From positions 24,248 through 88,247 of the forward strand of contig DASPRB010000105.1 of the NCBI GenBank assembly GCA_035624675.1: 64,000 nt of DNA, in the 5' to 3' direction. This DNA is from Burkholderiales bacterium (lineage in GTDB: Bacteria; Pseudomonadota; Gammaproteobacteria; Burkholderiales; SG8-39). The position numbers were made by a program, and so were the translations under genes. Under the pieces are notes generated by a model, which searched no databases, was not told where the DNA came from, and saw nothing but the letters and a program-made list of their open reading frames with translations. This document shows, piece after piece, positions 1,973 through 28,337 of this stretch. Numbering within the stretch: the stretch's first letter is position 1; every line of letters starts with the position of its first letter.

Positions 1973-3274
1973 TTGGCTGCCGGATCTGCCCAAACCCCGG
2001 TCTTGGGCACGCCCCCGCTCGCCGAGCTGCTCTGCGAGACGACGCGGTTGGTTGCGGCCGTCGCGAGCGGGCGCAGCCTAACAGGCGAATTGGAGCGCGC
2101 AGCCGAAGAAGGTGACTTGCCGCGCGCGGCGCTGATCGATCTTGCACACGGCACCTTGCGCCGCTTTGGACGCGTGCAAGCCCTCGAGCGGCAACTGACG
2201 ACGCGCGGCGGAACCGATTTAACGGCGAGCGCCTTGCTGTGGTGCTCCTTCTATGCGCTCGATTCGGGCCGCTACGCGCCCTACACCGTTGTTGACCAGG
2301 CGGTGCGCGCGTGCGGGCCGTTGGGCCTGCACCGCGCGAAGGGTTTTGTGAATGCGGTTCTGCGCCGCCTATTGCGTGACCGAGCAGCGATAGAGGCCGC
2401 GATAGCTGCCGATGAGCAAGCGCGCTGGTGGCATCCTGGATGGTGGATCGAAGCCCTGAGAAGGGCCTATCCCGACAAATGGCAGGAAGTGCTGGAGTCA
2501 GGCAACAGCCGCCCACCGATGGCGCTACGCGTAAATCTGCGGCGCGCCAGTGTGGGTGAATATCTCGCGCGTCTGGAGGCAGAAGGTTTCGCCGCGCGTG
2601 CGCTCGCTGAAGCGACCCTGTTGCTTGAGCGCCCCGTTCCAGTCGCGCGCCTGCCCGGGTTCATGTCCGGCGAGGTTTCGGTGCAAGACGCGGGTGCGCA
2701 ACGCGCGGCGCCCTTCCTGGATCTGGCCGATGGGCAACGCGTATTGGACGCATGCGCGGCGCCGGGCGGCAAGGCCGCACACATCCTGGAAGCCGCGGCG
2801 GTCTCCCTTACAGCACTGGATGCGGACGCGCTGCGCGGCGCACAGATGGAGCGGAACTTCGCGCGCCTGGGCTTGCGCGCTCAAGTGAAGATCGCCGACT
2901 GCTCTCGACTCGACGCTTGGTGGGACGGCGCGGAGTTTGACCGCATCCTCGCCGATGTGCCGTGTTCGTCGTCGGGGGTAGTGCGAAGGAATCCGGACAT
3001 TAAGTGGCTGCGCAGGGCAAGCGACATTGCGGGGTTCGCGAGGCGTCAGTCAGCGATTCTCGATGCGCTTTGGCGCGTGCTCGCACCGGGTGGTAAATTG
3101 CTGTATGTCACCTGCTCGGTCTTCGCCGAGGAAAATGAGTCCGTCATCGGCGCGTTCGGCGCGCGTACGCCGCAGGCGCAGAGGCTTGCGTTGCCGGGCG
3201 GCGCAGCGGCTCAGCTCCTGCCGGACACCGAGCACGACGGTTTTTATTTCGCTCTGCTAACGAAGCGGGCCTGA
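1973..3274 (+). CDS. rsmB: 16S rRNA (cytosine967-C5)-methyltransferase RsmB
   Basis: The C-terminal part of track ORF 1760..3274. It has a NusB-like N-domain followed by SAM-MTase motifs (VLDACAAPGGKAAHILE, DRILADVPCSSSGVVRRNPDIKWLR, YVTCSVFAEENE). The start is uncertain because there is no ATG or GTG after the fmt stop. I placed it at TTG 1973; TTG near 2006 is an alternative. Confidence 0.85.
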   Translation: MAAGSAQTPVLGTPPLAELLCETTRLVAAVASGRSLTGELERAAEEGDLPRAALIDLAHGTLRRFGRVQALERQLTTRGGTDLTASALLWCSFYALDSGRYAPYTVVDQAVRACGPLGLHRAKGFVNAVLRRLLRDRAAIEAAIAADEQARWWHPGWWIEALRRAYPDKWQEVLESGNSRPPMALRVNLRRASVGEYLARLEAEGFAARALAEATLLLERPVPVARLPGFMSGEVSVQDAGAQRAAPFLDLADGQRVLDACAAPGGKAAHILEAAAVSLTALDADALRGAQMERNFARLGLRAQVKIADCSRLDAWWDGAEFDRILADVPCSSSGVVRRNPDIKWLRRASDIAGFARRQSAILDALWRVLAPGGKLLYVTCSVFAEENESVIGAFGARTPQAQRLALPGGAAAQLLPDTEHDGFYFALLTKRA

Positions 3275-11064: not shown

Positions 11065-14793
<3,729 letters not shown>

Positions 14794-14803
14794 GTCGATT
14801 CGT

Positions 14804-14841
14804 AAAACAAAAAGCCCGTTCAGCTTTCGCTTGAAACGGGC
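14804..14841 (-). terminator. intrinsic terminator / attenuator hairpin inside the metH 5' leader
   Basis: The minus-strand RNA reads GCCCGUUUCAAGC-GAAA-GCUGAACGGGC, about 11 bp with two bulges, followed by UUUUUGUUUU. The element ends about 10 nt before the metH ATG at 14793. There is no upstream minus-strand gene it could terminate, because the next gene is divergent. Confidence 0.65.
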
Positions 14842-14869
14842 CCTCTTGCCTGATGCGGCACGCGTCTCT

Positions 14870-14926
14870 TTAGCGGCACTTCTTTTTCACCGCCCGGCGG
14901 CGGGTCGGCGCCCGCAAGCTGAACAT
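14870..14926 (-). promoter_or_regulatory. candidate 18-codon leader ORF ([18 protein letters not shown]) in the metH leader
   Basis: AUG at 14926 and UAA at 14870-14872. Codons 2-4 (UUC AGC UUG) are the 9-nt segment complementary to the terminator 3' arm. I see no clear Shine-Dalgarno sequence, so translation is unproven. Confidence 0.3.
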
Positions 14927-15022
14927 CAAATCGGCGCAGGACGCAGTCTGCCGCCCTACCCCTTTCGTGTCAACCACTTGGCGAGCGCGCGTATAATCCG
15001 GAACCTTCGCGGAGCCACCCCG

Positions 15023-15418
15023 ATGCAGCATCTCCAGCCCAAGGAAGCCTACGCCTTCCTGCAGCAGAACCCGAGCGCGCTGTTCATCGATTGCCGCAGC
15101 GAAATGGAATACCTGTTCGTAGGGCATCCGGTCGGCGCACTGCACGTTGCCTGGAACGACGGGCCGGACTGGGACGTCAACCCGCACTTCGTCGGGCAGG
15201 TGAAGAAGCTGGCCGGCACCAACCATGCCGTGCGGCCGATCGTCCTCATCTGCCGCAGCGGCAATCGCTCGCAAGAAGCCGGGGGAGCGCTGGAGGGCGC
15301 GGGCTTCGCCCGCGTATACAACGTGGTGAACGGATTCGAGGGTGAGATGAACGAGCGCCACCAGCGAAACACGATCGCCGGGTGGCGCTTCGATGGGCTT
15401 CCCTGGGAGCAGTGCTGA
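15023..15418 (+). CDS. rhodanese-like domain protein
   Basis: 131 aa from the internal ATG of track ORF 14543..15418. It is a single rhodanese fold with active-site loop CRSGNRS (LICRSGNRSQEAG). A TATAAT lies at 14992-14997 upstream. Confidence 0.85.
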   Translation: MQHLQPKEAYAFLQQNPSALFIDCRSEMEYLFVGHPVGALHVAWNDGPDWDVNPHFVGQVKKLAGTNHAVRPIVLICRSGNRSQEAGGALEGAGFARVYNVVNGFEGEMNERHQRNTIAGWRFDGLPWEQC

Positions 15419-26837: not shown

Positions 26838-28337
26838 ATGCCGCTGGCGGTGGTGGCGAGCCGTGCGCTCGCCGGAATCGATGCCCCGGAGGTCACGGTC
26901 GAGGTGCACCTCGGACCGGGACTGCCGGCGTTTCACATCGTCGGCCTGCCCGACGCCGAGGTGCGCGAGGCGAAGGATCGCGTGCGCGCGGCACTGAACC
27001 ACGCGCACTTCGAATTCCCGGCGCGCCGCATCACGGTGAATCTCGCGCCTGCCGATCTGCCAAAGGACTCCAGCCGCTTCGACCTCCCGATCACGCTCGG
27101 CGTGCTTGCCGCGAGCGGTCAGCTTGCGCCCGAGGCGCTGGCCGGCCACGAATTCGCTGGCGAGCTGTCGCTCACCGGCGAACTGCGCCCGGTGCGCGGG
27201 GCGCTCGCCATGGCGCTCCAGGCGCGCGGCGCCGGACGAGCCTTCGTGCTGCCCGCGGACAACGCGCCGCAGGCATCGCTCGCTGAGGGCGCGCGCGTGC
27301 TACCGGTCCGCACCCTGCTCGAGGTCGTCGCTCACCTCACGGGTGAAGCCCGCCTCGAGCCGTACGCCGCGAAGACGTGCGCGGCATCCCCCGGGTATTC
27401 GGATTTCGACGAGGTGAAGGGCCAGCAGCAGGTCAAGCGCGCGCTCGAAGTGGCCGCTGCCGGCGGACACAGCGTCCTCATGGTCGGGCCGCCGGGGACT
27501 GGCAAGTCGATGCTCGCCGCGCGCTTTCCCGGCATCCTGCCGCCGCTATCCGAGGGCGAGGCGCTCGAAGTGGCCGCCGTGCAGTCGGTGTCAAGCGCAG
27601 GCTTCGAAGCACGCCAATGGGGCGCGCGCCCGTTCCGCGCACCGCACCACAGCGCCTCTAGCGCTGCACTGGTCGGCGGCGGGAACCTGCCGCGTCCGGG
27701 AGAAATATCTCTGGCCCACCATGGCGTGCTGTTCTTGGACGAGCTGCCGGAATTCGACCGCGACGTGCTCGAGGCGCTGCGCGAGCCAATGGAATCGGGC
27801 CGCATCTCGATCGCGCGCGCAGCGCGTCAGGCGCAGTTTCCCGCGCGCTTCCAGCTGCTCGCCGCGATGAATCCCTGTCCGTGCGGCCACTGCGGCTCGC
27901 CCGGGGGACGCTGCCGCTGCACGCCCGAGCGCATCGCCCGCTACCGCGGCAGAGTGTCCGGGCCGCTCGCCGACCGCATCGACATCAAGTTGGAAGTCCC
28001 CGCGCCGCGGGACGAGGAGTTGCTGGCGAACGCACCGGGCGAGCCTACCCGCGTCATCCGCGAGCGCGTGATGCGGGCGCGCGCAGTCCAGACCGCACGC
28101 CAGGGCAAGCCCAACGCGCTCCTCGAGACGCGCGAGATCGACCGCCACTGCGGCACGGACCGGGACGGCGACAAGCTGCTGCGCCACGCGCTCGCGCGGC
28201 TGCTGCTCTCGGCGCGCGCTTATCACCGCGTGCTGCGCGTCGCGCGCTCGATCGCCGACCTGGCGGACACTCGAATGATTGCGGCTGAACACGTCGCCGA
28301 GGCGATCCAGTATCGCAGGCTCGACGCCTCGTTCTAG
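26838..28337 (+). CDS. YifB/ComM family Mg-chelatase-like AAA+ ATPase
   Basis: 499 aa. The Lon-like N-domain (VEVHLGPGLPAFHIVGLPDAEVREAKDRV) is followed by Walker A (GPPGTGKS), Walker B (VLFLDELPEF) and a Cys cluster (CPCGHCGSPGGRCRC). Confidence 0.93.
   Translation: MPLAVVASRALAGIDAPEVTVEVHLGPGLPAFHIVGLPDAEVREAKDRVRAALNHAHFEFPARRITVNLAPADLPKDSSRFDLPITLGVLAASGQLAPEALAGHEFAGELSLTGELRPVRGALAMALQARGAGRAFVLPADNAPQASLAEGARVLPVRTLLEVVAHLTGEARLEPYAAKTCAASPGYSDFDEVKGQQQVKRALEVAAAGGHSVLMVGPPGTGKSMLAARFPGILPPLSEGEALEVAAVQSVSSAGFEARQWGARPFRAPHHSASSAALVGGGNLPRPGEISLAHHGVLFLDELPEFDRDVLEALREPMESGRISIARAARQAQFPARFQLLAAMNPCPCGHCGSPGGRCRCTPERIARYRGRVSGPLADRIDIKLEVPAPRDEELLANAPGEPTRVIRERVMRARAVQTARQGKPNALLETREIDRHCGTDRDGDKLLRHALARLLLSARAYHRVLRVARSIADLADTRMIAAEHVAEAIQYRRLDASF

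Follow-up and report, generated by a model that had tools for sequence, protein, structure and literature searches.

A probable SAM-II riboswitch with an inserted hairpin and a terminator expression platform in the metH leader of an uncultured Burkholderiales lineage

SAM-II riboswitches, also described as the metA motif (Rfam RF00521, SAM_alpha), bind S-adenosylmethionine (SAM); a near-consensus promoter usually ends a few nucleotides before helix P1 and terminators follow many copies, implying an OFF switch, and the downstream genes listed include metH (COG0646/COG1410) (Corbino et al., 2005; PMC1273637). Among the riboswitch classes of alpha- and betaproteobacteria, none is tied to terminators as often as SAM-II, whose mechanism of gene control then lacked experimental proof (Barrick and Breaker; PMC2258182), and the literature searched yielded no experiment on a SAM-II antiterminator. 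Using Rfam, Leyn et al. (2014; PMC4239095) reported SAM_alpha in Rhizobiales and Rhodobacterales only, and described for betaproteobacteria a "novel" RNA element, metXZ, in which a pseudoknot is combined with a terminator. A Burkholderia copy located upstream of methionine genes had been catalogued as the small RNA (sRNA) Bp2_Cand287_SIPHT (Khoo et al., 2012; PMC3521395).

Here, the leader of metH from an uncultured Burkholderiales lineage was compared with these elements. It belongs to the SAM-II family in both sequence and structure, being an additional copy of a known kind that carries a terminator expression platform, and we put the probability that it is a SAM-II riboswitch acting as a transcriptional OFF switch at about 0.88. 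SAM binding and the direction of switching are predicted properties of this leader, selective binding being suggested by the identity of the conserved core nucleotides.

Aptamer and conservation of the metH leader

The window, that is the whole stretch of 64,000 nucleotides analysed, contains a 229-bp spacer (14794-15022) separating two divergent genes, metH on the minus strand (11065..14793) and a rhodanese-like gene on the plus strand (15023-15418). The product of metH, the presumed regulated gene, is a cobalamin-dependent methionine synthase of 1242 aa with five Pfam domains (S-methyl_trans, Pterin_bind, B12-binding_2, B12-binding and Met_synt_B12). The features on which the original prediction for this spacer was built, namely an intrinsic terminator, its U-tract, a 9-nt complement, a short upstream open reading frame (uORF), a repeat and TTGACA, were all recovered at their positions on the metH strand. 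Its reading of the leader as a cis-regulatory RNA controlling an intrinsic terminator is supported; it had left the element unclassified and the sensing mechanism open, and Rfam matches in orthologues together with an independent SAM-II model now assign it to SAM-II.

The aptamer spans about 14937-14863 on the minus strand and comprises P1, a 19-nt loop L1, an optional 20-nt hairpin, an A-rich linker and the tail GCUAAAGAGACG. In the Rfam SAM_alpha alignment, the 5' strand of P1 is GCGCC (14933..14937, also aligned by the independent model R1 described below), and the final L1 nucleotide G is followed by the 3' strand GGCGC (14908..14913), so that the block GCGCC-GAUUUGAUGUUCAGCUUGC-G-GGCGC occupies 14937-14908, with GAUUUGA at the 5' side and GCUUGC at the 3' side of the loop. 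L1 itself, GAUUUGAUGUUCAGCUUGC (14914..14932), matches the RF00521 consensus GAUUUGacCGGCCGGCUUGCA with a posterior probability of 1.0 and is almost identical across 20/20 orthologues; besides the conserved GAUUUGA and GCUUGC it contains GUUC, which serves as its P2 strand, as well as the 9-mer (14916-14924) and the uORF start codon (AUG 14926), which is not conserved. The linker AAAAAGAAGUGCC (14875..14887), equivalent to pseudoknot L3, aligns to the R1 consensus AcAAAUgCa, and its counterpart in orthologues aligns to the UUAAAcAAgUC region of RF00521. The tail (14863..14874), placed by the R1 and orthologue alignments, contains the conserved GCUAAAG and the 3' strand of P2; the segment AAAAAGAAGUGCC-GCUAAAG (14887-14868) is thereby included in a full-length alignment to R1, and the orthologue alignments of linker and tail cover RF00521 positions 42-79. 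Upstream of metH, the aptamer has a putative promoter just ahead of P1 and a terminator (14841-14804) after P2.

A scan of the entire 64 kb at Rfam gathering thresholds returned no match, and scans by E-value yielded sub-threshold matches only. Against RF00521, the window scored 14.5 bits, below the gathering threshold of 36, and aligned over model positions 11-41 only (14937-14908), where GCGCCGAUUUGAU-GUUCAGCUUGCGGGCGC was placed on the consensus GUGGuGAUUUGacCGGCCGGCUUGCAgCCAC with a posterior probability of 1.0. Orthologous metH loci were drawn from one genome per species, and the 20 closest, with a MetH identity of 72-93%, came from Burkholderiales or betaproteobacterial metagenome-assembled genomes. 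All 20 orthologues recovered share the same leader core, in which GCGCCGAUUUGA-N-GUUCAGCUUGCGGGCGC comes first, then a hairpin that is optional and variable, then ACAAAUnCCGCUAAAGAGACG, and, beyond a spacer that also varies, a terminator GCCCGUUUC...AAGCUGAACGGGC with U's after it, while the motif was absent from the three gammaproteobacterial metH loci inspected (L019, L023 and L026). Seven orthologues lack the hairpin, and four of these match RF00521 over its full length (L004, 41.9 bits; L013, 41.7; L007, 40.9; L017, 38.8); the window differs from these four solely by the 20-nt hairpin that separates its linker from the 3' strand of P1. The cmscan search that the original prediction had proposed left the window itself below threshold, and four of its insert-free orthologues lie above that of RF00521. 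As it had also allowed that a confident match to a known family would end the claim to novelty, the matches in orthologues and the independent model of the window do so.

That model was obtained by scanning metagenomes with the pattern CCGATTTGAN{5,8}GCTTGCGGGCG and aligning 97 insert-free aptamers, from which the window and its orthologues were excluded (alignment A1, covariance model R1). Searched against the 64 kb, R1 gave a single significant match: aligned over its full length to 14942-14857 of the minus strand, it reached 44.2 bits, with an E-value of roughly 1e-10, and no other match was better than E = 2.7. Within A1, covariation was seen at the outer P1 pair 5:38 (AU 32, CG 23, UA 9, UG 7) and at the P2 pseudoknot pair 23:61 (UA 38, UG 12, AU 11, CG 5), and the covariation score of 0.167 exceeded all slid controls and compared with 0.086 in shuffles, none of 500 being as high. 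The 21 close orthologues show little covariation because almost nothing varies among them. The register of P2 in the tail was taken from mutual information and pair counts, the canonical register being derived from 109 sequences (x2:z3 paired in 97%; mutual information of 0.30 for x3:z4). The window agrees only weakly with the family at P2, where its helix is short, as is P2a in this subfamily: in the canonical register it forms C-G, U-A, a bulged U, and then G-C and G-U, with the C-G and U-A falling at the two best-supported pairs.

Upstream of P1, a -35 box TTGACA (14968..14973, minus strand) was read from the sequence, followed 17 nt later by a weak -10 box CAGACT (14945..14950, minus strand), which matches the consensus at 3/6 positions and ends 7 nt before P1. 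In 11/21 orthologous leaders TTGAC keeps its place relative to the aptamer, preceding L1 by 41-43 nt, and the -10 position in orthologues reads CAGACT, CACACT, GACAAT or TAGAAT; the earlier suggestion that TTGACA belongs to the metH promoter is plausible, and transcription from TTGACA/CAGACT would start a few nucleotides before P1. A simple consensus scanner reported neither promoter nor terminator in the leader, a result of little weight with so weak a -10 box and a bulged stem, the latter probably being why the hairpin was missed. The stretch from the U-tract to the metH AUG contains no visible Shine-Dalgarno sequence.

Conservation also bears on whether ribosomes, not a ligand, could set the switch, as in trp and his leaders, with translation of the uORF across the 9-mer deciding between terminator and antiterminator. 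The 18-codon uORF does exist and overlaps the 9-mer, its start codon (AUG 14926) lying inside the conserved GAUUUGAU / GAUUUGAUG of L1. This AUG is present in 11/21 leaders, which encode peptides of 8-72 aa, and is replaced by GAUUUGAA, GAUUUGAG or GAUUUGAC in 10/21. The uORF of the window contains no methionine codons past its start and is preceded by no Shine-Dalgarno sequence; a conserved uORF with regulatory codons, as expected of a leader-peptide attenuator, is not what the orthologues contain. Moreover, the AUG lies within the aptamer loop, whose conserved nucleotides are accounted for by SAM-II. Ribosome-mediated attenuation, one of the mechanisms originally proposed, is therefore rejected because its start codon is not conserved, and we regard it as extremely improbable.

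Covariance models for SAH, cobalamin and SAM-I riboswitches found no match up to E = 10 (14500-15300 or 14795-14975), in agreement with the earlier observation, made by eye, that the leader lacks the SAH and cobalamin types. Weak matches to anti-hemB, ar45, P9, PK-BYV and Ms_IGR-8, all with E above 2 and some on the terminator hairpin alone, were discarded. The direct repeat GUGCCGC x2 was likewise set aside as a functional element: its first copy is the junction of linker and tail, its second lies in the unconserved variable spacer, and no function is indicated.

The inserted hairpin

At the junction of P1 and the linker, the window carries the optional hairpin CGACCCGCCGCCGGGCGGUG (14888..14907, minus strand), with the stem CCGCC/GGCGG and a folding energy of -10.2 kcal/mol. 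It is because of this 20-nt insert that the window falls below the Rfam threshold. Inserts at the same site occur in 13/20 orthologues and in 10/114 SAM-II copies from metagenomes; their sequences are unrelated (for example CCGCC/GGCGG, CCAC/GUGG, CCGGCA/UGCCGG and GCCGG/CCGGC), and nearly all of them form hairpins. A hairpin at this site, the base of P1 and the start of the linker, would be able to point away from the ligand pocket. The original statement that the leader lacks the compact spacing of SAM-II is literally true, but the exclusion of SAM-II drawn from it fails, the spacing being explained by the optional hairpin after P1.

The hairpin and the short P2a might nevertheless be taken to reshape the pocket for SAH, methionine or another methionine-cycle metabolite, making the leader a new riboswitch class or a SAM-II look-alike. 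Other riboswitch classes are known to include variants whose specificity has changed, and a P2a of unusual shortness and a score under the Rfam gathering threshold would both fit such a variant. The core, however, is identical to the RF00521 consensus in GAUUUGA, GCUUGC and GCUAAAG, stretches that include the uridines through which, in its crystal structure, SAM-II contacts SAM. Four metH orthologues without the insert pass the Rfam threshold, and the insert is optional, variable in sequence and placed at the P1 base away from the pocket. A new class or a changed specificity is, on these grounds, very improbable, and the SAM-II assignment is preferred.

Published alignments bear on the same site. 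The SAM-II alignment of Corbino et al. (2005; PMC1273637) has at most 5 nt there, while Figure S2 of Leyn et al. (2014; PMC4239095) includes inserts after GGGCGC in copies from Burkholderia, Ralstonia and Cupriavidus. The Rfam SAM_alpha model misses copies bearing an optional hairpin after P1, a blind spot that plausibly explains both the restriction of SAM-II to Rhizobiales and Rhodobacterales in the 2014 survey, with its "new" metXZ element, and the existence of an antisense "sRNA" family (RF02424) for the same RNA.

Terminator and predicted strand exchange

The intrinsic terminator on the minus strand is the hairpin GCCCGUUUCAAGC-GAAA-GCUGAACGGGC (14841..14814; 5' arm 14829-14841, 3' arm 14814-14824), with an energy of -15.2 kcal/mol alone and -17.5 kcal/mol with its flanks, followed by the U-tract UUUUUGUUUU (14813..14804), which ends 10 nt before the metH ATG (14793). 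In L1, the 9-mer GUUCAGCUU (14924..14916) is perfectly complementary to AAGCUGAAC (14826..14818), giving 10 bp when a G-U pair is counted and a duplex of -14.1 kcal/mol; we estimate at about 0.006 the probability of finding by chance, within about 100 nt, nine nucleotides perfectly complementary to the terminator arm. Within the aptamer, the 9-mer falls in L1, the strand that makes the pseudoknot. A second complementarity links the tail to the 5' arm of the terminator, GAGACG with CGUUUC and GCU with AGC.

Conservation across orthologous leaders, proposed earlier as a check, was assessed for both elements. The terminator hairpin is kept in 20/20 orthologues, and a complement of at least 8 bp between L1 and the 3' arm is present in 17/21 leaders, the helix being broken in L003, L007, L016 and L056; in orthologue L014 the two strands have changed in a compensatory manner (GCUC:GAGC). 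The prediction that the 9-nt segment could compete for the terminator 3' arm is supported. The spacer between aptamer and terminator varies among orthologues in sequence and length, and its small hairpin UGCC-GCAUCA-GGCA (14847..14860, minus strand), which holds the second GUGCCGC copy, is not conserved. The minimum free energy fold of the whole leader had a z-score of -1.5, which is uninformative for a pseudoknotted switch.

These complementarities suggest a model of four segments, namely L1 (1), the tail (2), the terminator 5' arm (3) and the terminator 3' arm (4). With SAM abundant, the L1-tail pseudoknot and its triplex (1:2) would be stabilised, leaving the 5' arm free, so that the terminator (3:4) would form and RNA polymerase would halt at the U-tract, 10 nt ahead of the metH AUG, keeping metH off. 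With SAM scarce, the tail would pair with the 5' arm (2:3, through GAGACG with CGUUUC and GCU with AGC), this pairing forming first during transcription, and L1 would capture the 3' arm (1:4, GUUCAGCUU with AAGCUGAAC); the terminator would be blocked and metH transcribed. How 2:3 and 1:4 share this work is given here as we infer it. The computed energies are -15.2 to -17.5 kcal/mol for 3:4, -3.1 kcal/mol for the ligand-free 1:2, -13.7 kcal/mol for the 2:3 hairpin (GAGACG:CGUUUC and GCU:AGC plus spacer pairs) and -14.1 kcal/mol for 1:4.

Both pairings were also examined family-wide. Whole-locus permutation of RNAduplex energies gave no locus-specific signal for L1:3' arm pairing (median rank 0.45), nor for tail:5' arm pairing; it was insensitive, as the established P2 failed too, with the conserved AGCUU/GCUAAAG blocks dominating, and shuffle controls and an in-register test were used for this reason. 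In 80 metagenomic loci having a SAM-II aptamer and a terminator, tail:5' arm complementarity exceeded that of composition-matched shuffles (p<=0.05) in 32/80 and L1:3' arm complementarity in 18/80, compared with 1/80 and 6/80 for control pairings. The in-register extension of the L1:3' arm helix was 1.93 against 1.60 in permuted sets, a value reached in 14/2000 permutations, and contiguous L1:3' arm helices of at least 7 bp occur in 14 loci with different sequences (GUUC:GAAC, AUUC:GAAU, CAUC:GAUG, GAUC:GGUC and AUC:GAU). The 3' arm residues left unpaired in the terminator were not enriched overall for L1 pairing (5/22); in three individual loci (L087, L119 and L177) such residues do pair with L1.

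Taken together, the complementarity between L1 and the 3' arm is real and probably contributes to antitermination, and tail:5' arm pairing would be the more general antiterminator; the L1:3' arm match may follow in part, by transitivity, from mimicry of the tail by the 3' arm. Extended to terminator-type SAM-II riboswitches at large, the proposal is that a four-segment strand exchange includes, in the ligand-free state, a second pseudoknot (L1:3' arm) beside tail:5' arm pairing, and that the P1-base hairpin is a recurrent accessory hiding many betaproteobacterial copies from Rfam; we offer this generalisation tentatively, at somewhat less than even odds. Terminator arms that mimic the two pseudoknot strands provide a concrete and mutable model of how a pseudoknot aptamer could drive a terminator. 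The mechanistic gain is incremental and involves no new principle.

Relation to described elements

By way of premature termination, SAM is predicted to exert feedback repression on metH in this uncultured Burkholderiales lineage; for betaproteobacterial metH, the element is missing from the 2014 regulon reconstruction. The value of the leader lies in an explained database blind spot, in the joining of separate names, and in a testable four-segment model of the expression platform.

Bp2_287 (RF02424), the Rfam family derived from Bp2_Cand287, covers the metH leader from end to end (model positions 1-174; 23.5 bits, E 0.005), with the match on the plus strand, antisense to metH, and its consensus, when reverse-complemented, reads GCGUCGAUUUGAUuucaGCuUGCGGACGC, hairpin, AAACaGCuaaaGCG and terminator. 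This full-length match raises the possibility that the element is an independent trans-acting sRNA gene ending at the terminator, homologous to Bp2_Cand287 of Burkholderia; the B. pseudomallei homologue was detected by RT-PCR (PMC3521395) and, according to a passage in a further report (PMC9373788), the S. meliloti metZ SAM-II riboswitch is predicted to release an sRNA, RZ, upon termination. The score, however, is far below the RF02424 gathering score of 70, and the antisense match is simply the reverse complement of a SAM-II aptamer and terminator. The element is always directly 5' of a methionine gene and co-oriented with it, and any trans role of the terminated leader would supplement a riboswitch function, not replace it; an independent sRNA gene thus appears quite unlikely, and the SAM-II riboswitch is retained. 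The Burkholderia expression platform of Bp2_287 differs from that of the metH leader in sequence and lacks the L1:3' arm complement.

The metXZ element (PMC4239095, Figure S2) shares the blocks GCGCCGAUUUG, GCUUGCGGGCGC and AAAUnCnGCUAAAGA and a terminator with the metH leader, in which its six conserved regions (GCGCC, GAUUUG, GCUUGC, GGGCGC, AAAUnC and GCUAAAGA) are present and are then followed by the terminator. It differs in location, having been published upstream of metXW or metZ with one copy per genome, whereas metH lies downstream here, and in name, its authors having considered it novel and not SAM-II. The sequence of Bordetella BB4554 appears in both the Leyn and the Corbino alignments, and metXZ is for this reason identified with SAM-II. 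Recognition of the insert therefore unifies three named RNAs, SAM-II, metXZ and Bp2_287, and merged entries would tidy the record.

The four regions of the trp attenuator resemble the four-segment reading proposed here. SAM-V (RF01826), a relative of SAM-II that likewise binds SAM through a pseudoknot and triplex, gave no cmscan match in the metH leader, whose nucleotides at the consensus positions are those of SAM-II.

SAM-II itself (RF00521, the metA motif; PMC1273637) is the family to which the metH leader is assigned. The leader resembles it in P1, in an L1 of the form GAUUUGA...GCUUGC, in the A-rich linker and GCUAAAG tail, in an L1-tail pseudoknot of canonical register, in a promoter before P1, in the terminator and in its methionine-gene target. 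It differs by the 20-nt hairpin placed after the 3' strand of P1 and ahead of the linker, by a short and bulged P2a, and by its host, an uncultured Burkholderiales lineage and not an alphaproteobacterium.

Promoters and translation start around the metH riboswitch

On the plus strand of the metH/rhodanese spacer, a perfect TATAAT lies at 14992-14997, 25 nt 5' of the rhodanese ATG (15023), which is also preceded by a GGAG near 15010. Read on the metH strand, the TATAAT site corresponds to ATTATACG and is conserved in most of the orthologues where the divergent rhodanese gene is retained; this spacer thus contains two back-to-back promoters. At four betaproteobacterial metH loci (L005, L006, L008, and L009), the rhodanese gene is replaced by a co-oriented upstream gene, which ends just 5' of the riboswitch (...CUGCACUGA), and a TAGAAT-type -10 box stands immediately 5' of the P1 helix. 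The riboswitch thus retains a promoter of its own despite the different neighbourhood.

Between the aptamer tail and the terminator, the window carries only a small UGCC-GCAUCA-GGCA hairpin, while an extra GC-rich hairpin (e.g. GGGAGACUCGUCUCCC) occupies this spacer in three orthologues (L008, L017, and L018). The stretch that separates the terminator U-tract from the start codon of metH, at 14794-14803 on the minus strand (ACGAAUCGAC AUG), contains no recognisable Shine-Dalgarno sequence; at the same location, a GGAG is present in some orthologues and absent from others.

Occurrence of the P1/L1 core

Among the 120 metagenome loci recovered by scanning for the P1/L1 core (L081-L200), a MetH-like gene was found near the core in only seven, in one of which it lay approximately 1.2 kb away. 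The orthologous leader L003 may be a decaying copy, since it bears GAUUGC in place of GCUUGC in the L1 loop, together with a divergent terminator. Elsewhere in the window, the sequence at 27113-27128 on the plus strand (GAGCGGUCAGCUUGCG) weakly matches part of the SAM-II L1 consensus (7 bits, E 2.7), accompanied by neither P1 nor the tail. This match is most likely due to chance.

Correspondence with described RNA families

The SAM_alpha matches in the leaders of the window, L017, and L018 are overlapped by Rfam matches to RF02424 (Bp2_287, "Burkholderia sRNA"), all full length and antisense to metH (14809-14990, plus strand; 2302-2463, minus strand; and 2326-2483, minus strand, respectively). 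In the reverse complement of the RF02424 consensus, a SAM-II aptamer can be read together with an inserted hairpin and a terminator. The family thus appears to describe a SAM-II riboswitch, but with the model built on the wrong strand.

In a 2014 survey, SAM_alpha was reported in Rhizobiales and Rhodobacterales only (Leyn 2014, PMC4239095), plausibly because inserts drop many copies below the Rfam threshold. When Figure S2 of that survey was compared with the alignments in Additional file 6 of Corbino 2005 (PMC1273637), SAM-II core sequences were found in the betaproteobacterial "novel metXZ RNA element" described in the former, and the Bordetella BB4554 sequence proved common to both.
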